Assembly (NCBI GenBank): GCA_021324755.1
Contig: JAJPIL010000001.1
Span: forward strand, 152-64,151
DNA: 64,000 nucleotides
Direction of reading: 5' to 3'
Origin: Pseudomonadota bacterium
Lineage (GTDB): Bacteria; Desulfobacterota; Binatia; Binatales; Binataceae
This document shows positions 3,452-27,353 of the stretch, one piece after another (within the stretch, counting starts at the first letter, position 1; every line of letters starts with the position of its first letter). The notes below the pieces were generated by a model. It had not been told where the DNA came from. It saw only the letters and a list, made by a program, of their open reading frames with translations, and did no database searches. The translations under genes were made by a program, and so were the position numbers.

Positions 3452-4283
3452 ACCTTCCTTCGCGCCTCGGATATACAAAAGCTATACTCGCTTTGACCGC
3501 AGAGGGCAAGCCGTAACGATCGATTCTCACCGCACGCCCGATCTGCAAGGAATGCGACCTTCCTGCGATTGCCCGCACCCCGCTCATCTGCGGACTAAAT
3601 CGCAGGCAGGCTTGCACCGGAGTTCTCGGCGCTAGCGCGCTTAAGTATACGCGCTTTGCCGCACAAGCCGCCGCTTCGGCTGTTTCCGCAATTACGTCTT
3701 GCGCTAGCAGACGCGATCGATTATCGAAAATAAGCCCGAAAGACCCGTGACCCAACCTACCGCAACAGAACGGAAGCAATATGAACGTTGAGAACAGTAA
3801 CAGCGATTTTTTCCGACACGCTAACGCCGATTAAAACAAAAACCCGTAGAGGCCGAGCTTCAACTGCACAGCAAGGCCAGTGACACGCAGCGCCGATTGT
3901 GTTCGCCCGCCTTGGAGATAGCCGTGTCCTGGCCATTTCGATTGCTATATGTGCAGTTTACTAGGTATGCTACCCACACATCGGTAGCGAGCGTCAGCGC
4001 CGTATCGGCCTCCAGCAGAAACGCGAGCCCATCCAGGCCTGCGGCGAACGGTTCCGCCGACGCCTCCGGTCAGTTCACTGTCCTCTCCGCGACCTGCAGG
4101 GAGCGTTCAGCGGTCACTTATCGGAAGCGTCGTCGACATGTAAGAGGGGGATGACGAAACTTACAGGGCGGGGCTGGGACGGGTCCACTGTGGGTCGCCA
4201 CATGACCTACGCCGTCTCGGACCACGCGAATGCCGCCACTGTCCGATTCGCGATCTTCTGGTGGCCCATCTGGAGGTGAGGAC

Positions 4284-5189
4284 ATGACTATTCCAGACTA
4301 TCAGACCTTTATGCGCCCGTTGCTCGAGCTACTCAGCGACGGCCAAGAACGTTCAAGGCGCGAATGCATCGATGCGCTTGCAGACCGTTTTGGTCTTTCC
4401 AGAGAAGAGCGAGCAAAGCTGCTCCCTAGTGGGCAGCACCGGGTTCTCGATAACCGCGTTGACTGGGCTAAATACCACTTGAAAGAAGCCCATCTTATCG
4501 GGGCGCCCACCCGTGGCCGCTGGCACATAACCCCTTTAGGCCAGCAAGCGCTAAAAGAGCATCCCGGCGAAATCGACGGCGAGTTCCTCAAGCGCTACTC
4601 GGAATTCAGGCAACAAAGCGCGACAAAGTCGAGCGACCGGGAGGCGTCTGCATCGGAACACGCGCACGCTGACCCCGTGGAGCAAATCGAACGCGCATTT
4701 TCAAGTTACCAGGAATCGCTAGTCGATGACCTGCTGGAAAAGATCCGCATGGCAACTCCGGTCTTTTTCGGGCGCTTGGTGATCCGGCTGCTTGTTGCGA
4801 TGGGTTACGGAGGCGGACTTAGGGAGGCCGCGGAAGCCGTGAACGAGAGCGGCGACGAAGGAATCGACGGCATCATCAACCAGGACAAGCTAGGCTTGGA
4901 CACCATCTATATTCAAGCCAAGCAATGGACCAAACCGGTGGGGCGTCCTGAGATTCAGAAGTTCGTCGGTGCGTTGGAGGGGAAAAAATGCAAGAAGGGG
5001 ATTTTCATAACAAGTTCGGAGTTCACCAGAGATGCACAAGATTTCGTCACTCACCTGCAATCGCGGGTGGTCCTGATCGATGGGAGAAAGATGGCACGCC
5101 ATATGATTGGACACAACGTAGGTGTAACGACCAAGTTTGTTTACGAACTGAAGTCAATAGATGAGGATTTTTTCGAAGATGAAACCTGA
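4284..5189 (+). CDS. mrr: Mrr-family type IV (modification-dependent) restriction endonuclease, Mrr_N winged helix plus Mrr catalytic domain
   Basis: N-terminus MTIPDYQTFMRPLLELLSDG is typical of Mrr_N. The C-terminal region DGIINQDKLGLDTIYIQAKQW ... GIFITSSEFT matches the Mrr_cat PD-(D/E)xK core. GGAGGTGA SD 5 nt before the ATG at 4284. The ORF track starts at 4230, which is probably an extension. Confidence 0.8.
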   Translation: MTIPDYQTFMRPLLELLSDGQERSRRECIDALADRFGLSREERAKLLPSGQHRVLDNRVDWAKYHLKEAHLIGAPTRGRWHITPLGQQALKEHPGEIDGEFLKRYSEFRQQSATKSSDREASASEHAHADPVEQIERAFSSYQESLVDDLLEKIRMATPVFFGRLVIRLLVAMGYGGGLREAAEAVNESGDEGIDGIINQDKLGLDTIYIQAKQWTKPVGRPEIQKFVGALEGKKCKKGIFITSSEFTRDAQDFVTHLQSRVVLIDGRKMARHMIGHNVGVTTKFVYELKSIDEDFFEDET

Positions 5190-5449
5190 ACGCGTCGTTA
5201 TGCAGGGTGAAAGAACGTGATAAATGAAACCGCCACCGGTCAAGTCCTGAATCTCCTGGAGTGCCCCCTGTAGGTTTGGCGTTGCTCCCCGTTCAGCGTT
5301 CGACGCTCACCACCTTCTCTTCCTTTGCCGGGGCAGTATTTTTAAGCGTCGTGCTGCCGACGGTGATTCGACGCAGGAGGGGATTGAAGCGGGCGCTGGA
5401 CTTAACTTAGCCGATCGAAGAAAATTCCCCTCCCAGGAGGTCGCCCGCG

Positions 5450-6601
5450 ATGGCTTCGGAACTCGACCAGCTGTGGCTCGACGGCTCATCTCGTATCCTT
5501 AAGCGATGCGAGATGAGCGCAAGCGAACTCGATTCGGGCTTTCCCCATTTCGCCGACCCCGAGACCGGCGCCTGGACGCTCTCGCCCCAGGGCGACTGGA
5601 CCGGCGGCTATTTCTGCGCGATCCTCTGGCTCGACGCCCATCTCACGGGCTCGGACAACGTGCGCGCGCTCGCCCGCCGTTTTTGCGCCGCGCTCGGCCC
5701 GCGAATCGACTCGCGCACCGTCTTTCGCGCCTTCCTCTTCTACTACGGCGCCGCGCTAGGGGCGATCGTATGCGGCGATGCGCTTGCGCGCGAGCTTGCC
5801 CTCGACGGAGCACGCGCGCTCGCCACGACCTACAACGCGCGCGCCCGATGCTTCGGGCTCGGCGAGCAGGCCGAAGAGGCGAGCGACGTCGGCAATTGCG
5901 AAACCAGTATCGACGCCGTGGGCCCGCTCTGCGCCCTTCTCGCCTGGGCCGGCGCGCAGAGCGGTGACGAGCGGATGGGCGCGATCGCCCGCGAGCACGC
6001 GCTTACCCATATCGAGTTCTGCCTGCGCCCCGACGGCTCGGTATGCCAATCGGCGACCTTCGACGAAAACACCGGCCGCTTGATCCGCCGCTACACCCAT
6101 AAAGGCTTCGCCGAGAACAGCACGTGGGCGCGCGCCCAGGCGTGGGGAATGCTCGGCTACACGTTCGCCGCGCGATGCTTTCCGCAAGAGCCGCGCCTGC
6201 TCGAGGCCGCCTACCAGACCGCCGATTGGTGGCTTGCGCACGCGCCGTCAGATCTGGTCGCCTTCTGGGACTTCGACCATCCCGCGATCCCCGATACCTA
6301 CCGCGACACCTCGGCCACGGCGATCGCCGCCGCCGCGCTCCTAAAGCTCTCGGCGCTTACGCCCGAAGCCGAGCGCGCCCGCCGCTACCGCGCCTTTGCC
6401 GAGCGCGTCGCGGCCACCCTTGTGCGCAACTACCTGACGCCCGTCTCGCCCACCGACCGCCGCCCGCCCGGAATCCTGACCGAAGGATGCTACAACGCGC
6501 GCATCGGCCTTGCCGTCAAAAACGAACTCATCTGGGGAACGTACTACCTGCTCGAGTCGACGCTCGCCCTCTCTGGAAGAATCGATCCGCTGGCGCTGTA
6601 A
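5450..6601 (+). CDS. six-hairpin glycoside hydrolase, GH88/GH105-like (unsaturated glucuronyl/rhamnogalacturonyl hydrolase family)
   Basis: Motifs DWTGGYFCAILWLD and WARAQAWGMLGY resemble the FWxxGFFxGxLW and WSRGQAW signatures of GH88/GH105. CAGGAGG SD 8 nt before the ATG. Very high GC. Confidence 0.55.
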   Translation: MASELDQLWLDGSSRILKRCEMSASELDSGFPHFADPETGAWTLSPQGDWTGGYFCAILWLDAHLTGSDNVRALARRFCAALGPRIDSRTVFRAFLFYYGAALGAIVCGDALARELALDGARALATTYNARARCFGLGEQAEEASDVGNCETSIDAVGPLCALLAWAGAQSGDERMGAIAREHALTHIEFCLRPDGSVCQSATFDENTGRLIRRYTHKGFAENSTWARAQAWGMLGYTFAARCFPQEPRLLEAAYQTADWWLAHAPSDLVAFWDFDHPAIPDTYRDTSATAIAAAALLKLSALTPEAERARRYRAFAERVAATLVRNYLTPVSPTDRRPPGILTEGCYNARIGLAVKNELIWGTYYLLESTLALSGRIDPLAL

Positions 6602-6730
6602 AAGCGCCGGCGACGCTTCTTCGCTTCGCCGTCTAGAAGCCCGATCCAGCCGCCCCAGGGCGCGCAAATCCCACGCGCCAAAGCGTTTGCGAAGCGACCG
6701 CGCGGCCGTAAATCAAACACGCCTTTATCG

Positions 6731-7005
6731 CCGCTTGCTTTCTTGAGCAACTCGAGCGAAAAGTTTAAAAGTCGGCCGCTTTTTCGAACAAAAAGTTCGC
6801 AGGCACAGTTGCTTTTCTCGAGCCATAGGTTCGACAGTTCCTAGTCTTCTTCGAGCGAGAAATTTTATCCGTCGCTTCCCTTCTGCGAGCAAAAGCTTTA
6901 CTTGCGGCTTGTTTTTTCTCGGGCGAAACGCTTGTCATCTTCTTTTGCCTTTTCGAGCGGCGACCTTACCTGCCGCTTGCTTTTTTCGAGCGAGAACTTT
7001 AAGAG
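6731..7005. repeat. array of about 8 degenerate direct repeats, period about 34-36 bp, core CTTGCTTTTYTCGAGCGARAA containing the near-palindrome TTCTCG-AG-CGAGAA
   Basis: Read directly from the sequence. Units start near 6731, 6771, 6807, 6838, 6871, 6907, 6939 and 6975. The array lies in the 415-bp intergenic region between the GH88-like gene and the MerR gene. Confidence 0.7.
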
Positions 7006-7015
7006 TTGTTACTCA

Positions 7016-7769
7016 TATGGAATACACGATCGACGAGCTTTCGCGCAAAAGCGGCCTTTCGGTCGACACGATTCGCTACTACCAGGCGATCGGGCTTTTG
7101 CCGCGCCCGCGCCGCATCGGACGGCGCGCGCTGTACGCCGACTCCCATCTGGAGCGCCTCAAGGAGATTCGTGCCGGCGCACGCGCCGGACTTCCGCTCA
7201 AGGTGATGGCGGCGATGCTCAAGGCGCGCGGCTCGCTCGGGCCCGAGCTCGAGCTTTACGCCGCGCTTAGCAAGCCGCGGGCAAATCCGCGCTTTACCGC
7301 GCGCCAGATCGCGCGCGAGCTCGGCGTGCGCCCCGAGCTAGTGGAGCTCGCCGAGCGGCTCGGGCTCACCTACGGCGAACCGACGTCGGGCGGCCGGATG
7401 CGCTACTCGCGGGCCGATCTGCGCGCCGCGCGCAGCGCCAAAAAAATCTTCTCCTACGGCTTTCCGGTAAGTAAGCTCTTTGCGCTTGCCGTACGCCACG
7501 ACCGCGCCGTAAGGGCCACGGTCGACCAGGCGATCGAGCTTTTCGACCGCTACGTGCGCCGACCCAAAACCACAAACGGCCGCGAAGACCTAGCAGCCGT
7601 GGCGCGCGCCTTCAGCGAGCTCTTCCCAGCCGTAAGCAGCCTTGTCGCCTACCATTTCCAGCGCGTGCTCGTCCAGCGCGCGCTCTCGCGCCTAAAACAA
7701 TCCGCGCCGCAGGCGACCTACCGGCTCGCTCGCAGGACGGCGTACCAGGTCTACGCCTACCAGATTTGA
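7016..7769 (+). CDS. MerR-family transcriptional regulator
   Basis: N-terminal HTH MEYTIDELSRKSGLSVDTIRYYQAIGLLPRPRRIGRRALYADSHLERLKEI is a canonical MerR DNA-binding domain. The C-terminal effector domain is not recognised. ATG at 7016; the ORF track extends upstream to 6909. Confidence 0.8.
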
Positions 7770-7802
7770 ACCCGTAGCCGCCCGATTCCCGAGGTGCCAG
7801 CG

Positions 7803-9245
7803 ATGGGCTCGACGATCGATCGTTCGCAGGAAAGCGAAGCTCCCATGTCGGCGCAAAAAGCCTCCCCACGCAAGCTTGCGCGCGAGCTCGTGCGGCTCGA
7901 CACTGCGCCCGACCTGCTTGCGCTTGCGCGCGCTTGCCCGGCAAGCCGTCTTTTTTACTTCGAACATCCGGCACGGAACTTCGCGCTTCTAGGCGTCGAT
8001 TCCGCCCTGCAAATCGCCACGCGCGGCCGCGGACGCCTGCCCGCGCTCTCGCGCACAATTCGTACCGCGCTCGCCGAGCTTGCCGCCGACCGCGCCGAAC
8101 CTCCGCCCGTCGCGGTCGGAGGCTTCGGCTTTTTCGACTTCGAGAGCGAGTCTCCCAGGTGGCGCGATTTTCCGCCGGCCTTGCTTTTCGTGCCCAAGCT
8201 CCTGTGGACGATCGACGGCGGCACGAAAACTTTATCGCTCGTTTTCGACTCGCCCGCCGAGCGTGCCGAGATCTGGGCGATGGCGCAACGCCTGATCGCG
8301 GCGGCAAGCGCTGGCACGATGCCCAAAGCCTTCGCTTCGCCGTCCCCGGAGCGCATCGATTCGGCGGCGCGCCCCGAGCGCGATGCGCTCGCACAGGGTT
8401 TACCGCCCGCTTCCGCGCCCGACTTCATGGGGCACGACCAACAGGAGCAGGAGCGCCTTCGATGGCGGGAGCGTGTCGAACGGGCGCTGGCGAGGCTTTC
8501 TTCGGGCGAGCTTCAAAAGATCGTGCTCTCGCGCGCCAAGACCGCGCGCCTGCCGGCGGGGCTCGACCCTGGGACGATCGTTGCGCGGCTGCGCTCGAAG
8601 CGGCCGCGATGCGCAAGCTTCTGGATGAAGCAGGGCGAAAAAAGCTTTATCGGCTCGACGCCAGAGCTCCTGGTGCGGCTTTGCGCCGGGCGGCTCGAGT
8701 CGGCCGCGATGGCTGGTTCGGCGCCGCGCGCACAGACGCCGGAGCGCGACGCCGAGGCCGCGCGCCGGCTCCTGGTCTCGCCCAAGGAGCTTTTCGAGCA
8801 CAAGCTCGTGGTCGAGGCCGTGCGCGAGGCGCTTGCGCCCGTGGCGCGCACGCTCGAGATTCCCGCTGCGCCCGAGGTCGCCGCGTTTCCCGAGTCGTTC
8901 CATCTGCTGACCCCGATAAGAGGCGAGCTTGCCCGCGCGTGCGACGTGCTCGAGCTCGCCGCGCGCCTCCATCCCACGCCCGCCGTCTGCGGCGTGCCCT
9001 CGCTCGGCGCGCTCGAGATCCTGGCGCGCGAGGAGCCGGAGCGTGGATGGTACGCTGGAGGAATCGGATGGCTTCGAAGCGACGGCGACGGCGAATTCAT
9101 GGTCGCGCTGCGCTCGGCTCTGATCGAACGAGACCTCGTCACGATTTTCGCCGGCGCGGGAATCGTCGCCGGCTCCGACCCGGATGGGGAATTCAGCGAG
9201 ATCGAAAACAAGATGGGGGCGCTTTTGTCGGAGTTGATCCCATGA
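7803..9245 (+). CDS. menF: isochorismate synthase (chorismate-binding enzyme), menaquinone-specific
   Basis: C-terminal chorismate-binding motifs (GVPSLGALEILAREEPERGWYAGGIGWL ... GDGEFMVALRSALI ... AGAGIVAGSDPDGEFSEIENK). Immediately followed by, and overlapping, menD. GAGGTG SD before the ATG at 7803; an alternative GTG lies at 7794. Confidence 0.85.
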   Translation: MGSTIDRSQESEAPMSAQKASPRKLARELVRLDTAPDLLALARACPASRLFYFEHPARNFALLGVDSALQIATRGRGRLPALSRTIRTALAELAADRAEPPPVAVGGFGFFDFESESPRWRDFPPALLFVPKLLWTIDGGTKTLSLVFDSPAERAEIWAMAQRLIAAASAGTMPKAFASPSPERIDSAARPERDALAQGLPPASAPDFMGHDQQEQERLRWRERVERALARLSSGELQKIVLSRAKTARLPAGLDPGTIVARLRSKRPRCASFWMKQGEKSFIGSTPELLVRLCAGRLESAAMAGSAPRAQTPERDAEAARRLLVSPKELFEHKLVVEAVREALAPVARTLEIPAAPEVAAFPESFHLLTPIRGELARACDVLELAARLHPTPAVCGVPSLGALEILAREEPERGWYAGGIGWLRSDGDGEFMVALRSALIERDLVTIFAGAGIVAGSDPDGEFSEIENKMGALLSELIP

Positions 9246-11068
9246 CGGTTCGAAATCCCAACGCCAAAGCCGCGCTCGCCCTGCTCGAGGAACTCTGCCG
9301 CTTGGGCGTGCGCGAGGTATGTATCAGCCCGGGCTCGCGCTCGACGGCGCTCGTGACCGCCGCGCTCAAGACGGCCGCGATGCGCTCGCGGGTAATCCTG
9401 GACGAGCGTTCGAGCGCTTTCTTCGCGCTCGGGCTTGCGCGCGCCTCGGGCCGACCGGCGCTCGCGATCTGCACCTCGGGCACCGCCGCCGCCAACTTCA
9501 TGCCCGCCGTGGTCGAAGCCAACCTCTCCCATACGCCGCTAATCGTGCTTACCGCCGACCGCCCGCCCGAGCTTCAGGATTGTCACGCGCCCCAGACGAT
9601 CGACCAGACGCGGCTTTACGGTGTTCACGTGCGCCTCAGTATCGAGCTTCCGGCGCCCGAGGACCGGCCCGACCTGGAAGAGAATTTCCGCGCCGCCGCC
9701 TTCCGCGCCTTCGCGGCGGCGATTGGAATCCCGCCCGGCCCGGTACATATAAACTTCCCCATGCGCGAGCCCCTGATCGACGTCGCGGAGGAAAAAGCTG
9801 CGCTCGACCGCCTAAGCGAGTCTCGATCCACGCCGACGCCTGCGTCCTCGGAGCCGCCGCCCACGGTCGCGATACTCCCAAGCCTGCTCGGCCCCGACCA
9901 GGCTGCCGTGGAGCAGCTCAAATCCACGCTCGATCGCAGCCTGCGCGGGCTTATTATCTGCGGCCCTGGGACGCTTGCCGGCCCCGACCCCGAAAAGGCG
10001 AAAAGAAGTATCCTTGCGCTCGCCGAGCGCCTCGACTGGCCCGTGCTCGCCGACCCGCTCTCCGGGATGCGTTTTGGTCGGCACGACGCAAGCCGTATCG
10101 TCGACGCCTACGACGTGTTGACCCGCGAGCGCAGGCTCGATCCCGCGCTCGCGCCCCAAGCCGCGATCCAGTTCGGACATCCGCTGACTTCCAAGGCGAC
10201 GCTCGAATTTCTGGCGCGCAACAAGCCGCTTGCCTTCTACCTGGTCGTCGCGCCGTGCGGAACCTGGCCCGACCCGTACCGCCTGGCCACGGCCGCGCTG
10301 CGCGCCGATCCGGTCGCGCTTTGCACCGCGCTGCTCGAGCAACACGGGCTTGCGCCCGCGCCCGCCGATTGGCGCGCACGATGGGAGATCGCGTCGCGCG
10401 CCGCGCGGGAGCGCCTAAACGCTCTGCTTGCCGACTATCAGGCACCTTTCGAAGGAAAAGTGTTCACGGAGCTTTTGGCCCGAATGCCCGAGCATAGCCT
10501 CCTCTACGTCGGCAACAGCATGCCCGTGCGCGACCTCGACACCTTCGGCCCTGCGCTCGGCCGCGAAATCCGCGTGCTCGCCAACCGCGGCGCAAACGGA
10601 ATCGACGGCGTCCTTTCCAGCGCGGCCGGCGCAAGCGCCGGCGCCTCGTGCCCCACCGTTTTGGTGCTGGGCGACCTAAGCTTCCTCCACGACTTGAGCG
10701 GCCTGCTCACCGCCGCGCGCTGGGCGCCGAACCTCACCGCCGTCGTGCTCAACAACGACGGCGGCGCGATCTTCTCGTTTCTGCCCCATGCCGCGCTCGG
10801 CGCGCCGTTCGTAACATACTTCGTCGCGCCCCACGGTCTCAAAGACCTCGCGCCCGCCGCCGAGCTCGTCGCCACGAACTTAAGCCGCCCGCAAAACTGG
10901 CCAGAGTTCGGCCAGACGCTTAAGCGCGCGCTCTGCGCGCCGGGCTTCAAGCTCGTCGAAGTCCGAACCGACCGCGACCAAAACCTAAAGCTCCATCGCC
11001 ACTTTATCGCCGAGGCGCTGGCGGCAAGCTGCCAGGCTCTCGCGCAGCGCGGGCTTCTACGAGAGTGA
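9242..11068 (+). CDS. menD: 2-succinyl-5-enolpyruvyl-6-hydroxy-3-cyclohexene-1-carboxylate synthase (TPP-dependent)
   Basis: N-terminus AKAALALLEELCRLGVREVCISPGSRSTALV ... GRPALAICTSGTAAANFMPAVVEANLSHTPLIVLTADRPPEL is the MenD TPP-enzyme signature. ATG at 9242 overlaps the menF stop. The 1044-aa ORF in the track is an upstream read-through artefact. Confidence 0.9.
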   Translation: MTVRNPNAKAALALLEELCRLGVREVCISPGSRSTALVTAALKTAAMRSRVILDERSSAFFALGLARASGRPALAICTSGTAAANFMPAVVEANLSHTPLIVLTADRPPELQDCHAPQTIDQTRLYGVHVRLSIELPAPEDRPDLEENFRAAAFRAFAAAIGIPPGPVHINFPMREPLIDVAEEKAALDRLSESRSTPTPASSEPPPTVAILPSLLGPDQAAVEQLKSTLDRSLRGLIICGPGTLAGPDPEKAKRSILALAERLDWPVLADPLSGMRFGRHDASRIVDAYDVLTRERRLDPALAPQAAIQFGHPLTSKATLEFLARNKPLAFYLVVAPCGTWPDPYRLATAALRADPVALCTALLEQHGLAPAPADWRARWEIASRAARERLNALLADYQAPFEGKVFTELLARMPEHSLLYVGNSMPVRDLDTFGPALGREIRVLANRGANGIDGVLSSAAGASAGASCPTVLVLGDLSFLHDLSGLLTAARWAPNLTAVVLNNDGGAIFSFLPHAALGAPFVTYFVAPHGLKDLAPAAELVATNLSRPQNWPEFGQTLKRALCAPGFKLVEVRTDRDQNLKLHRHFIAEALAASCQALAQRGLLRE

Positions 11069-18178: not shown

Positions 18179-18736
18179 CTAAGCTTCGTCAGCGTCGTCT
18201 TGCTTGGCGTCGTCAGCGGCGGCGTCGTCGCCTTGCTTGGCGTCGTCGGCCTGCGACTCGTCGCCCAGGTAGACAGAACTATTCGGCGCCGCCAGATATT
18301 CGCGCAACGCCACGATCGACAGTTTGTCGAACGAGGCAAGCGTGGCCTCGGTCTGTTGGCGCGCCGGCGCGTCGAGCCCCAGAAGGGCCGCTTCGCGCTC
18401 CTCGATCTTAAGCGCCCGGTCGATCGCTTTTAGCGGCTCGCGCTCAAAATGTTGCCACAAAAGCCTGCGCATCGCACCAAGCCGCCGGAGCATCGCTTGT
18501 CGCGCCTGCTCCAGGTCGCTCGTCGGCTCCTGTCGAGCCTCGCGCAAAAGCGCCGCAAGTTCGCCGACGCCTCTTCCAGGGGCCTTCCGCTCGCTCCTGG
18601 TCTCGCCGCTCGCCGCAACCTGTGGCAGCAGGGGTTTTGCCGAACCGCGTTTGGTTGCGGCTTTAATCCCATTTTTTCGTTTCGGTCCTCGAGTGGAAGT
18701 CCTTTGGTTGGTCGGCCGCTTATCCCTCGTTCGCAT
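18179..18736 (-). CDS. hypothetical protein, basic N-terminus (K/R-rich) and acidic D/A/K-repeat C-terminal tail
   Basis: ORF co-directional with the upstream replicon-like genes. The C-terminal DDAKQGDDAAADDAKQDDADEA is encoded by short GAC-GAC-GCC repeats. No family recognised. Confidence 0.45.
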   Translation of the reverse strand: MRTRDKRPTNQRTSTRGPKRKNGIKAATKRGSAKPLLPQVAASGETRSERKAPGRGVGELAALLREARQEPTSDLEQARQAMLRRLGAMRRLLWQHFEREPLKAIDRALKIEEREAALLGLDAPARQQTEATLASFDKLSIVALREYLAAPNSSVYLGDESQADDAKQGDDAAADDAKQDDADEA

Positions 18737-18741
18737 CGATC

Positions 18742-18916
18742 GCCTCGCTCGATTTTTTGGATCTGTTTCTTTGGTACGCTCAATCGTGCTCCCCGTCGCG
18801 CCTTTTTGGTCCGCCTAGTCGCGGTCCCCATCGCGCCTTTTTGGTCGGCTTAATCGTGACCTCTAACGCACCTTTTGATAGGCCTAATCGCGGCTTTCGT
18901 CGCGCCTTTTTTCGCC
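18742..18916. repeat. about 5 tandem 35-bp direct repeats (consensus about GCYTAATCGYGSTCCCCRTCGCGCCTTTTTGGTCS), iteron-like
   Basis: Read directly. Four clean units lie at 18777-18811, 18812-18846, 18847-18881 and 18882-18916, with a degenerate fifth upstream. They occupy the intergenic space between the zinc-ribbon gene and the 185-aa gene. Confidence 0.75.
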
Positions 18917-20810: not shown

Positions 20811-21281
20811 AGGTTTTAGCCTCCGACTAATGGCGCGGATTTTTTGGTGCGCGACTTTTTGCGCGCTCGAGCCAGCGCGGCCTTGAGGTTGCGTACGCGG
20901 CGTTTAAAGGGGTCGAGAAGGCGCTTTGAGTTCGCCACTTTAACCGACGCTGCGCCCCAGGCGCTTGGGCCGCGTATCGCGAGAGGAAAAGATCGTTCGT
21001 TTGCACGCGGGCGCCTTGGGCCGGCTTTAACGCGACGAGGTTGATTCGGCGACAAGCGAAGGTGTCGTCCGAGGGCTTTCGGACTGGGAGGTCCGAGCGG
21101 GCGCCCAACGCGCGGTAGATTTTTTGTGTGCGGTAGGATTGGAGGATTTTTGCTTTGCGATTAGGGTTCGACTTTGCCGAAGGTCGAATTGGTTTAGCAT
21201 TGGGGATGGGGTTTAGGTGAGCGTGGCGAGACGGTCGATTGGGGTTTTGGGTTTTGGAGATGCGGGTGCGGGTTGGGACAA

Positions 21282-22100
21282 GGACGGTACGGATATCGTT
21301 TCGGACGAAGTTCTGGATTTGTCCAGGGCGAATGCCAATTTTCATCAAATCGGGGATCAGCAGGGCACGAGTCCCGGTTGGAACACAATTTGGGATTTGT
21401 GGGGCGCGAATGCTGATTCGCACGAAGCTTGGAGCGTGAAGGGCGCTGATACCGATTCGAACAAAACTGGTGATTTGACGGGCAGAAGTGCCGATTCGAA
21501 AAAAGTTCGGCGTCGGTACGACACGACTCCTGATTAGGACGCAGTTCGGAACTTCGAGGGCTTGGGTGTTAATTTGAACAAAGCGCGGAATTTGACCGGC
21601 GCAAGTCCCGATTTGTGCGAAGTTCGGGATTTTAAGGGCGCGAATCCCGGTCCGCACGAGGTTCAGGATTTGGAGCGCGCGAATGCTGATTCGCAGGAAG
21701 TGCGCAACCTGTAGGGCTAGGGTGCCAAGTCGAGCAAAGTTCTGGATTTGACGTGCGCAAATGCCGATTCGAACGAAGCTCGTGTTTTGACCGGCGCGGG
21801 TGCCAGTTTGAACGGAGCTCTTAATTTGACCGGCGCCGGTGCCGATTTGGACAAAGTTCTGGATTTTACGGGCACGAGTGCCGGTTAGAATGAAGTTGGT
21901 GACCTGACGGGTGCGGACGGCAATTCGAACGGGATTGTGGATTTGACCGGCAGGAGTGCAGGTTCGAACGAAGTTTGTGGTTTCACGGGCGCCGGTGCCA
22001 ATTCGAACAGAGCCCGGCCTTTGCCCCGCACAAACACCAATTCGAACAAGGTTTGTGGTTTGTAAGTCGCAGGCGTGAATTCGGACAAAATTCGGACAGA
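21282..22100. repeat. 21 tandem copies of a 39-bp unit (consensus about GGCGCGAGTGCCGATTCGAACGAAGTTCTGGATTTGACC), degenerate, head-to-tail
   Basis: Read directly; period exactly 39 bp (13 codons). Reading frames are broken on both strands. The ORFs 20827..21657(-), 21885..22115(-) and 21217..21537(+) each show 13-aa pseudo-repeats in different frames. Confidence 0.85.
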
Positions 22101-22546
22101 TCGTTTCAAACGCAATTCTATTTCCCGAATTCCCGCATATTTTCTGTTCTTCTCTTTTCCCGTACCCCTCTTTTGGCGTGATGTTTAATCACGGCAAAAA
22201 CAGAGAGTCGGTGTGCTGGCTGTTTGGCAAGTGAAATGCGGAGAACATGGCGCGGCAAGGCCGGCGCTCGGACAGTTTAAACGCCCGAATTAGCGAGATA
22301 CGCATGAGTGGCAGCCGATTCGAAGGAAGGCAATCAATTGCCTTAAAAGAGACAGAGCCGATATCTCGTAAGACGCGAGACTATCGCTTTTGCTAGGCGT
22401 CGAAGATATCCCATTTGAAAAATGGCACGCCCAAAAGCTACAGCAATCCGGAGGTCAAACCGATGGAAAAAGCTAGCGGGCACAGCTATCGCGCAGCTGC
22501 CTGGTTTGTACGGAGCGCTTCACCAGCCGTTATCAGAGAAATGAAG

Positions 22547-26436: not shown

Positions 26437-27353
26437 CGCCCCAATCTCCGCGCAATTGAATTAGCAAGTTTTAAAACCACGCTCCGAGCTTCAGCCGAGC
26501 ACAGACTTATCAGCCCACGAGATTCACCTAGGTTACATATTCTTGTCGGCTGCAAGCCCGGCAACGCGCGACCAAACGTTGCTAGATCACCTGTCGCTAT
26601 AGGCTAGCACCCATGCAATACATTCGAAAACTGTCGAAGAGCATTTTGTTGGAGCGCACTTCTTGAACACCGTGGCCAGCCAAGTCCCCATCGGCAACGG
26701 CGCTCAGTTGTAAAGACACTACACAATCGGCGCGCTACACCCTAGGCTCGCAGATTTTAAGCCTAATACAATAACTTCGGCCGATACGGTAACTCCTGCT
26801 CCGAGTCGTGACCAAAGCCGCAGCAATTGTAGAACCTACCTTACCCGATGCGCTTAAAGGGCTTGGGCAGAGCGGCATAGACTTTCGCAAGCCCATAAAA
26901 AGGCGGGCTTTCGCATCAGAGGCAACGGCGAACCTAAGCGAAATGACGCGGCCGTAAATAATAAAAGTAGGCCAACCGCTTCAGGACTCTGCCAGACGTT
27001 TCTGAGCTTTCGCCAAGGACGCCGGAGTTGCCCGGACCAAGCATTTGATCTGTCGACTAAACAATAGTTAGAATTTCAAGACGTGCGAAGTAACAGACCT
27101 ATGGCTGTTGCCGTGACCCGAAGGTCGCGCAAAGGTGCCGGTATTATCCCCACAGGACGGCAGAACGCCAAGCACGCCGCGTCGTAGTCAGTCTCTTAGG
27201 CAAACGCAGAGATGGCGATTTAGTGATTTTCCGCGCAAGTACGATGGCGCCTGGGTGAGGCATACCCATCTTCGGCCGTTAATGGATAGCCGCGCATGTA
27301 GTGATCACGTACCTAGATATTTTCAAGTTCGGGCAGAAGGGAAACGAATTAAA

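Follow-up and report, generated by a model that had tools for sequence, protein, structure and literature searches.

HspR is a MerR-family repressor that acts at the HAIR operator (CTTGAGT-N7-ACTCAAG) lying over the promoter of its own operon, and iterons are near-identical 17-22-bp repeats found with an adjacent Rep gene in a plasmid or replication-origin context. Tandem units in noncoding DNA are also known from the mycobacterial interspersed repetitive units (MIRUs, which are intergenic variable-number tandem repeats), whose units are dispersed at many loci and polymorphic in copy number, and from TR34/TR46 of Aspergillus fumigatus cyp51A, where two to three near-identical recent promoter copies have a proven effect on expression. 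Classical MerR promoters (merT, copA, zntA, soxS, and bmr) have a 19-20-bp spacer between their -35 and -10 hexamers, which is required for activation by distortion (PMC9909328). FtsR (Cg1631)/Rv1828 binds a 25-bp inverted repeat (AACCCTAAAGTAAAGGTTGAGGGTA) in actinobacterial ftsZ promoters, and the FtsR site of the Mycobacterium tuberculosis ftsZ P1 promoter (AACtCTAAg...) lies between -35 and -10 (PMC6683498). Here we describe an array of eight degenerate tandem units (U1-U8) directly upstream of a gene encoding an FtsR/Rv1828-like MerR-family regulator in a 64-kb stretch of contig JAJPIL010000001.1 (GenBank assembly GCA_021324755.1, family Binataceae), which is referred to below as the window. 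The array looks like a mostly decayed, lineage-specific duplication of the promoter of the regulator operon and not like a new regulatory device.

Structure of the tandem array

The intergenic region between the stop of the upstream gene (6601) and the ATG of the regulator gene (7017-7019) is 415 bp long. The array covers approximately 287 of these bases (about two-thirds) and ends at the MerR start codon, as a preliminary description of this DNA had reported. The same description had considered the region to be built almost entirely from repeats; however, the first 128 bp of the spacer (6602-6729) are non-repetitive, with a GC content of 64%. The array itself has a GC content of 47%, compared with 64-68% in its flanks. 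The features of the array and of its proximal unit are as follows.

6730..7016, + strand: whole array, eight degenerate head-to-tail units
6732, 6775, 6808, 6844, 6874, 6907, and 6939: starts of U1, U2, U3, U4, U5, U6, and U7, respectively
6732..6973, + strand: U1-U7, decayed copies of the promoter segment from -35 to -10, according to alignment to U8
6974-7006 with a tail to 7016, + strand: U8 (proximal unit), homologue of the family promoter, according to the position weight matrix (PWM) and hidden Markov model (HMM) of orthologues
6977..6982, + strand: predicted -35, TTGCTT (TTGACn in the family), according to alignment to orthologues
7001..7006, + strand: predicted -10, AAGAGT ((T/A)AGAGT in the family), after an 18-bp spacer and with the ATG 10 nt downstream, too close for a Shine-Dalgarno leader
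6988..7014, both strands: predicted operator, two adjoining 12-bp dyads separated by TAA
6954..6986, + strand: terminator-like hairpin and T-run at the U7/U8 junction

Cores similar to TCGAGCGA start at positions 6752, 6784, 6818, 6851, 6885, 6918/9, 6952/3, and 6986. Their core-to-core spacing is 32-34 bp, and the mean period is ~33.4 bp instead of the 35 bp initially proposed. Individual units are 30-43 bp long owing to indels, and each of them comprises a conserved core of ~12-20 bp and ~13 variable bases. The unit consensus is nnnTTGnCTTTTTCGAGCGAAAAGTTTAAnAG, with a mean column identity of 47%, and its core can be written as TTTTCGAGCGAAAA.

The preliminary description had left its units to be formalized by a repeat finder, and on this point the results were divided. 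Tandem Repeats Finder with a minimum score of 30 returned 41 rows, none of which is located within 6600-7020, because the mean column identity is only 47% and indels interrupt the units. On the other hand, shuffle statistics for both autocorrelation and alignment were significant. The harmonic autocorrelation at a period of 33 was above that of all dinucleotide shuffles (300/300), and the maximum single-lag autocorrelation was equalled by only one of 300. The gapped identity between U8 and U1-U7 was 0.658, whereas shuffled sequences gave 0.493 +/- 0.021 (z 7.9), and the all-against-all gapped identity of the units was similarly elevated over shuffles (z 8.6); taken individually, U1-U7 are 60-73% identical to U8. 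Thus, the approximately eight degenerate direct repeats first noticed are indeed present as eight head-to-tail units (z ~8 in shuffle tests), and the array shows what characterizes a minisatellite, namely head-to-tail copies with a constant period beyond chance expectation. A higher-order repeat of 101 bp, the top autocorrelation lag, was also considered and rejected, as the gapped unit identity showed no excess at a distance of three units; this lag is the strongest because three units sum to ~101 bp, whereby the phase is restored.

The array sequence is identical in two independent public assemblies and is therefore not an assembly artefact. Comparison of two other assemblies with the window revealed no single-nucleotide polymorphism over 6.5 kb, indicating that they represent the same strain. 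Scanning of metagenomes for variants yielded distant relatives only and no further contig from the same species.

The proximal unit and a promoter/operator conserved in the regulator family

We compared ~80 orthologous loci, for each of which the 120 nt before the start codon of the regulator gene were printed. A family element, TTGAC-N4-CGAGyrAttACTC-TAAGAGT-N6-8-ATG, directly adjoins the start codon of the regulator gene, in the ~40 nt before it (loci L003-L090; e.g., L012:2962-3000). Sixty-two of the ~80 loci align gaplessly over this element and most others carry close variants, and the element-bearing loci come from metagenome-assembled genomes (MAGs) labelled Binatia, Myxococcota, Actinomycetota, and others. 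Every orthologous locus has a single element, located at the start codon, and an additional upstream match (U1) was detected in the window locus alone. The preliminary description had set out from the usual arrangement of MerR promoters, with a single operator between -35 and -10, and this correctly applies here, since all orthologues have exactly one element. Considering that no orthologous locus has extra copies, the expansion is lineage-specific.

Within the family element, TTGACn is predicted to be the -35 hexamer and (T/A)AGAGT the -10 hexamer with its critical A2 and T6. Of 49 scored orthologues, 38 have a spacer of 17 bp between the two hexamers, 7 have one of 18 bp, and 2 have one of 19 bp. 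The -10 hexamer ends 8 nt before the start codon in 34 loci and 6 nt before it in 26, with two loci at 7 nt; such a short gap has no room for a Shine-Dalgarno sequence, so the mRNA would be leaderless or nearly so. The spacer holds a 12-bp dyad (GAGyrAttACTC), and in many loci the -10 hexamer and the start are covered by another one (GAGTnnnn(A)CTC). The ACTC box is near-invariant (~1.8 bits per position). Because the element is palindromic, it scores on both strands.

When a PWM and an HMM were built from the orthologue promoters only (the window being excluded), U8 gave the highest PWM score of the 64-kb window on each strand (+ strand, 19.0 bits; - strand, 23.2 bits), and it was the only unit recognized by nhmmer with the family HMM (E values of 1.7e-3 and 6e-5). 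Neither the PWM nor the HMM revealed any other credible site in the window. A second operator candidate at 27348 (PWM score of 9.6 bits) is located inside the N-terminal coding sequence of a long open reading frame (ORF) and was rejected as a chance match. On these scores, U8 is a homologue of the ancestral family promoter/operator. Its two dyads are GAGC-GAGA-ACTT (6988-6999, degenerate) and GAGT-TGTT-ACTC (7003-7014, perfect). The palindrome TTCTCG-NN-CGAGAA, which the preliminary description had singled out as a likely dimer-binding site, does not coincide with them: the dyad conserved in the family is GAGy-N4-rCTC, whose axis lies 4-5 bp further downstream. A dyad operator between -35 and -10, as expected for a MerR-type promoter, was found in U8 only. 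The over-long spacer of 19-20 bp that typifies such promoters is absent, with 18 bp in the window and mostly 17 bp in orthologues; given this 17-18-bp spacer and an operator that extends over the -10 hexamer and the start, simple repression is favored over activation by distortion. Since U8 is homologous to the family promoter and U1-U7 significantly resemble U8, the array consists of tandem copies of the promoter segment.

A hairpin with a 9-bp stem (6954-6979; -14.2 kcal/mol, z -3.3, only one of 200 shuffles being as stable) is followed by CTTTTTT at the U7/U8 junction, and its T-tail overlaps the -35 hexamer and the spacer of the proximal promoter. This hairpin resembles an intrinsic terminator and could halt transcripts that enter from the upstream gene or arise at pseudo-promoters further upstream.

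Condition of the upstream units

The block TTTTTCGAGCGA is retained in six to seven of the seven upstream units, and their 3' halves are poorly kept. The counterparts of the ACTC box in U1-U7 are AGTT, AGTT, GGTT, AATT, GCTT, CGCT, and ACCT, respectively. Most of the -10 hexamers have been lost, and five of the seven units do not have the essential A2/T6 of the -10 hexamer or the TTG of the -35 hexamer. The two units with promoter-like geometry are U1 (TTGAGC-N18-AAAAGT), which scores 6.7 bits with the family PWM and is third on the + strand of the window, and U3 (TTGCTT-N18-GACAGT). None of U1-U7 was recognized by nhmmer with the family HMM at any threshold. Complementary bases were present in only 12 of the 32 pairs of the family dyad in the units, which is near chance, and a GAGy-N4-rCTC dyad in each unit, as a multi-operator array would be expected to have, was not observed.

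We also examined if the positions conserved among U1-U7 are those conserved in the family. Conservation at the U8 positions among U1-U7 was not correlated with the information content of the family (Spearman -0.07, p 0.71), and positions of high family information are retained in fewer units (4.6 of 7) than the remaining positions (5.1 of 7). Retention of TTTTTCGAGCGA thus does not track what the family conserves. In addition, the recognition region of the regulator (SVDTIRYYQ..G) is invariant or nearly so between the window protein and its orthologues, and the same half-sites would therefore be expected, with unchanged specificity. Loss of the dyad, silence of the HMM, the null correlation, and the invariance of the recognition region together point to decay instead of operator maintenance.

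Proposed origin of the array

The explanation that we consider probable, albeit with limited confidence, is that the array is a decayed minisatellite. It would have arisen as the core promoter of the operon was duplicated in tandem again and again; U8 would be its one active copy, at whose dyads (6988-7014) the FtsR-like protein binds to repress the operon, and U1-U7 would be relics. In one lineage, slippage or unequal recombination may have repeatedly duplicated a core of ~33 bp (the -35 hexamer, the spacer with the left operator dyad, and the -10 hexamer) of the merR-menF-menD operon. U8 would have kept the form TTGnnn-N17/18-(A/T)AGAGT, and transcription would begin a few bases short of the ATG, so that the mRNA has little or no leader. 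The two GAGy-N4-rCTC dyads would span the spacer, the -10 hexamer, and the start site of U8, where the FtsR-like MerR protein most likely binds as an autorepressor. The seven copies upstream of it have drifted, with indels, to 60-73% identity and are most likely non-functional or weakly functional relics, while the U7/U8 hairpin and its T-run probably insulate the live promoter from upstream transcription. The frequent indels (units of 30-43 bp) and the GC content of 47% fit unconstrained decay. Among the three options offered by the preliminary description (a multi-operator array, iterons, or a decayed minisatellite), the last comes closest; what had escaped it is that the unit derives from the core promoter/operator of the operon itself.

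Several observations weigh against this explanation. Bacterial genomes usually shed DNA that serves no purpose, and yet ~240 bp of these old units (60-73% identity) have not been deleted, which hints at some function. Their conservation is uneven, with the central TTTTTCGAGCGA block in six to seven of seven units beside a poor 3' half. Furthermore, the unit consensus forms a 6+6 palindrome of its own, TTTTCG-AG-CGAAAA, with an axis unlike that of the family dyad, and could be a binding site. Finally, U1 and U3 keep the TTG of the -35 hexamer, A2/T6 of the -10 hexamer, and an 18-bp spacing, and are of the same quality as U8.

Alternative explanations

It is possible, although we regard it as unlikely, that the array is a functional multi-site array whose TTTTCG-AG-CGAAAA cores serve as low-affinity sites for the FtsR-like regulator or as sites for another dimeric factor, with cooperative repression or activation, titration, or DNA wrapping as a result. 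The persistence of such an old array would be explained in this way, as would the preservation of TTTTTCGAGCGA while the flanks decay, and the CGAG part of the core falls on the left half-site of the dyad conserved in the family; however, uneven conservation is weak evidence because the units share ancestry. The palindromic core noted in the preliminary description is real at the level of the unit consensus, in which it forms 6+6 pairs, but single units have 2-5 of 6 complementary pairs (29/48 over all units). Moreover, the right half-site ACTC is missing from U1-U7, family-dyad pairing is at chance, the family HMM detects U8 alone, no orthologue uses more than one element, and no enrichment of the core motif was seen in the rest of the window. 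With a spacing of 33-34 bp, or ~3.2 helical turns, successive sites would also face different sides. A multi-operator array for the MerR protein, as first suggested, is hence not supported, as only the proximal copy fits the family model. A related and quite unlikely scenario is an evolved operator/decoy array, in which the duplicated promoter fragments became eight TTTTCG-AG-CGAAAA palindromes that are together occupied by several dimers of the regulator or a second factor.

A set of tandem weak promoters, in which U1, U3, and U8 all fire and thereby raise or diversify men transcription while the long leaders from U1 and U3 are attenuated at the U7/U8 hairpin, seems decidedly unlikely. The rank of U1 on the + strand (third with the family PWM, 6.7 bits), the fit of U3 to the -35 and -10 consensus, which is as good as that of U8, and the position of the terminator-like hairpin between U1/U3 and U8 are consistent with it, but the -10 A2/T6 or the -35 TTG is absent from five of the seven upstream units, and a sigma-70 consensus scan detected no promoter within 6500-7100. 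In addition, no RNA structure signal was present in the 5' region. A structured RNA was examined separately and rejected, as the 301-nt fold (z -0.47) was no better than shuffled sequences. Rfam searches of the intergenic region (E values up to 1) gave no match; two matches only were obtained in a scan of 6000-8000, both within the regulator coding sequence and far below gathering thresholds, and nothing in the whole window reached a gathering score.

An unrelated minisatellite or dispersed intergenic repeat that abuts the promoter and resembles it by chance is very improbable. Two other degenerate arrays, with periods of 35 and 39 bp, are present in the same 64-kb window, so the genome may be prone to such arrays, but neither has significant similarity to the 33-bp array. 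U8, moreover, belongs to the array (0.60-0.73 identity, z 7.9) and is at the same time a homologue of the conserved promoter, and the unit core does not recur elsewhere in the window. Of the 90 loci fetched, 88 had no match to the unit core and the two that matched are the same locus as the window. A dispersed repeat similar to repetitive extragenic palindromes or miniature inverted-repeat transposable elements was rejected because, in the 64-kb window, the clustered core matches are all in the array and the other matches with two mismatches are isolated. The wide dispersal that the preliminary description had named as evidence against its view was accordingly found neither in the window nor among the 90 loci.

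Iterons or a centromere-like site, a decayed array of clustered regularly interspaced short palindromic repeats (CRISPR), or a repeat-containing RNA element are scarcely credible, since only the general look of constant-period direct repeats in an AT-rich intergenic region recalls them, whereas no initiator, partition, or cas gene is located nearby (the neighbors being an Mrr nuclease, a GH88-like enzyme, and men genes), a period of 33 bp leaves no room for a CRISPR repeat (23-50 bp) followed by a unique spacer of similar length, and the iterons proposed earlier would be difficult to reconcile with the absence of a Rep gene, a 288-kb chromosomal contig whose GC skew has no switch, and units that are 47% identical and not near-identical.

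The regulator and its genomic context

The genes flanking the array are as follows.

7017..7769, + strand: FtsR/Rv1828-like MerR-family regulator, 250 amino acids, with a MerR_1 helix-turn-helix (HTH) domain at residues 3-69
7794..9245, + strand: menF-like isochorismate synthase with a Chorismate_bind domain, 25 nt past the regulator gene
9242..11068, + strand: menD-like SEPHCHC synthase with thiamine pyrophosphate (TPP) enzyme domains, overlapping the menF stop
5450..6601, + strand: upstream same-strand gene with a weak GH88-like match

The N-terminus of the regulator is a MerR winged HTH (wHTH) domain (Pfam MerR_1, E value of 1e-20, residues 3-69), and profile searches against the PDB gave generic matches to the DNA-binding domains of CadR, MerR, and CueR, with no PDB match to the C-terminal domain of Rv1828. 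In precomputed Pfam matches, PF28507 (Rv1828_C) is listed for the regulator only as "faint". The only near-full-length model match is NCBIfam TF_FtsR_Actino (38 bits, residues 14-209); because this score is far from the cut-off of 150 bits, the regulator is best classified as FtsR/Rv1828-like and not as an FtsR equivalog. HspR models of NCBIfam also match its N-terminus. No ftsZ gene was identified in the window. The closest relatives, which are 46-52% identical, come from MAGs labelled Binatia, Myxococcota, 'Deltaproteobacteria', and Actinomycetota, and no relative above 52% protein identity was found.

Residues ~90-150 of the regulator contain a second, weaker MerR-like HTH segment (FTARQIARELGV...RMRYSRADL). 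A second MerR_1 match is recorded for the orthologue of locus L086 in precomputed records, and the regulator weakly matches an HspR model of 'fused homodimer type' in NCBIfam. A chain carrying two HTH domains would match an operator with paired dyads.

In orthologous loci, the gene order is MerR-(UbiE/MenG methyltransferase)-MenF-MenD-hydrolase, often with overlapping stops and starts. Downstream of the regulator gene, 70 of 88 loci have a MenF homologue; the loci without one are mostly those that break off near the regulator gene. Judging from this gene order, a menaquinone operon with the regulator gene in first place is conserved, and in the window the regulator gene presumably belongs to the same operon as menF. 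The UbiE/MenG gene present between the regulator gene and menF in the orthologues examined is absent from the window operon. Our literature search found no paper linking a MerR-family regulator to a men operon. Two genes upstream of the regulator, an Mrr-type restriction endonuclease (Mrr_N and Mrr_cat domains) is encoded at 4230-5189, where the GC content is locally lower (48% at 5001-5300). No tRNA or integration signal is present.

Other repeat arrays in the window

Including the array described above, the window contains three separate arrays with periods of 33-39 bp. The 39-bp array (21277-22095, with a signal from ~21200 to 22110) consists of ~21 units of exactly 39 bp without indels and with ~61-68% identity. 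In the + frame, it corresponds to a 13-residue repeat similar to DLTGASADSNKVL, with six in-frame stops, five of which are TAG. The antisense frame is open for 454 codons (~22190 to 20827), with no ATG, GTG, or TTG before 21657. Pfam searches with both reading frames gave no match. The strict register suggests a coding or register constraint, and this array is possibly a decayed or unusual repeat-protein gene. The 35-bp array (18770-18900) consists of four degenerate units, approximately CGCGCCTTTTTGGTCSGCCTAATCGCGRYCCCCAT, and is located 35-165 nt upstream of a minus-strand ORF starting at 18736. A kinship of the 33-bp array with these two arrays, including the shared TTCGAACAAA...GTTC, was rejected because 17-18 of 200 shuffles equalled it, and the 39-bp unit is supported as a copy of the family promoter by neither the PWM nor the HMM.

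Implications

The stakes of the array itself are modest. If our explanation is correct, it would represent a clear bacterial case in which a promoter/operator was amplified approximately eight-fold in tandem and then decayed or was re-used, which bears on the question of how cis-regulatory DNA arises in prokaryotes. If the units instead form an operator/decoy array, control of menaquinone biosynthesis would be cooperative or buffered, and the locus would exemplify how promoter amplification in nature can give rise to a new cis-regulatory array in bacteria. A possibly more useful by-product is the FtsR/Rv1828-like regulator gene at the head of a menaquinone operon (menG/ubiE-menF-menD-menH) with a conserved palindromic promoter/operator. 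The ligand and targets of this regulator family are poorly known, and cGAGyrAttACTCTAAGAGT provides a testable predicted binding motif and a regulon hypothesis.

Comparison with known systems

Among repeat systems, iterons share with this array the constant-spacing direct repeats next to a gene for a DNA-binding protein that could autoregulate, but here there is neither a Rep gene nor a plasmid context, the units are 47% alike, and the orthologous MerR-family proteins use a single site. MIRUs are similar in being intergenic tandem units of tens of bp, within or next to operons, that come from slippage or unequal recombination, whereas the unit in the window derives from a local promoter, is found at one locus only in the available sequence, and is far more decayed. 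TR34/TR46 resemble it as tandem duplications of a promoter segment of ~34 bp with transcription-factor sites; however, they are eukaryotic and recent, while the array in this bacterium comprises eight old and diverged copies.

Among regulators, HspR shares the inverted GAGT/ACTC half-sites with the predicted operator, but its half-sites are separated by N7 instead of N4, its C-terminal domain is different, and its operon is dnaK/clpB and not men. As in classical MerR promoters, a palindromic operator in the -35/-10 spacer is predicted to be bound by a MerR-family wHTH protein, although the spacer is 17 bp in 38 of 49 family loci and 18 bp in the window, the operator reaches the -10 hexamer and the start, and eight copies are present in place of one operator. 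FtsR/Rv1828 is likewise similar in its architecture, with a MerR wHTH N-terminus and an Rv1828_C-type C-terminus (the C-terminal domain being only faintly matched here). The position of the operator between -35 and -10 is that of the M. tuberculosis ftsZ P1 site, and the half-site ACTCTAAG of the element is identical to the AACtCTAAg of that site (PMC6683498). No tandem site amplification has been described for FtsR, which binds one 25-bp inverted repeat, whereas two adjoining GAGy-N4-rCTC dyads are present here. The two also differ in genomic setting, as FtsR is located in a garA/odhI-ftsR neighborhood and acts on ftsZ, while the regulator described here heads a menaquinone operon and its predicted target is its own promoter.

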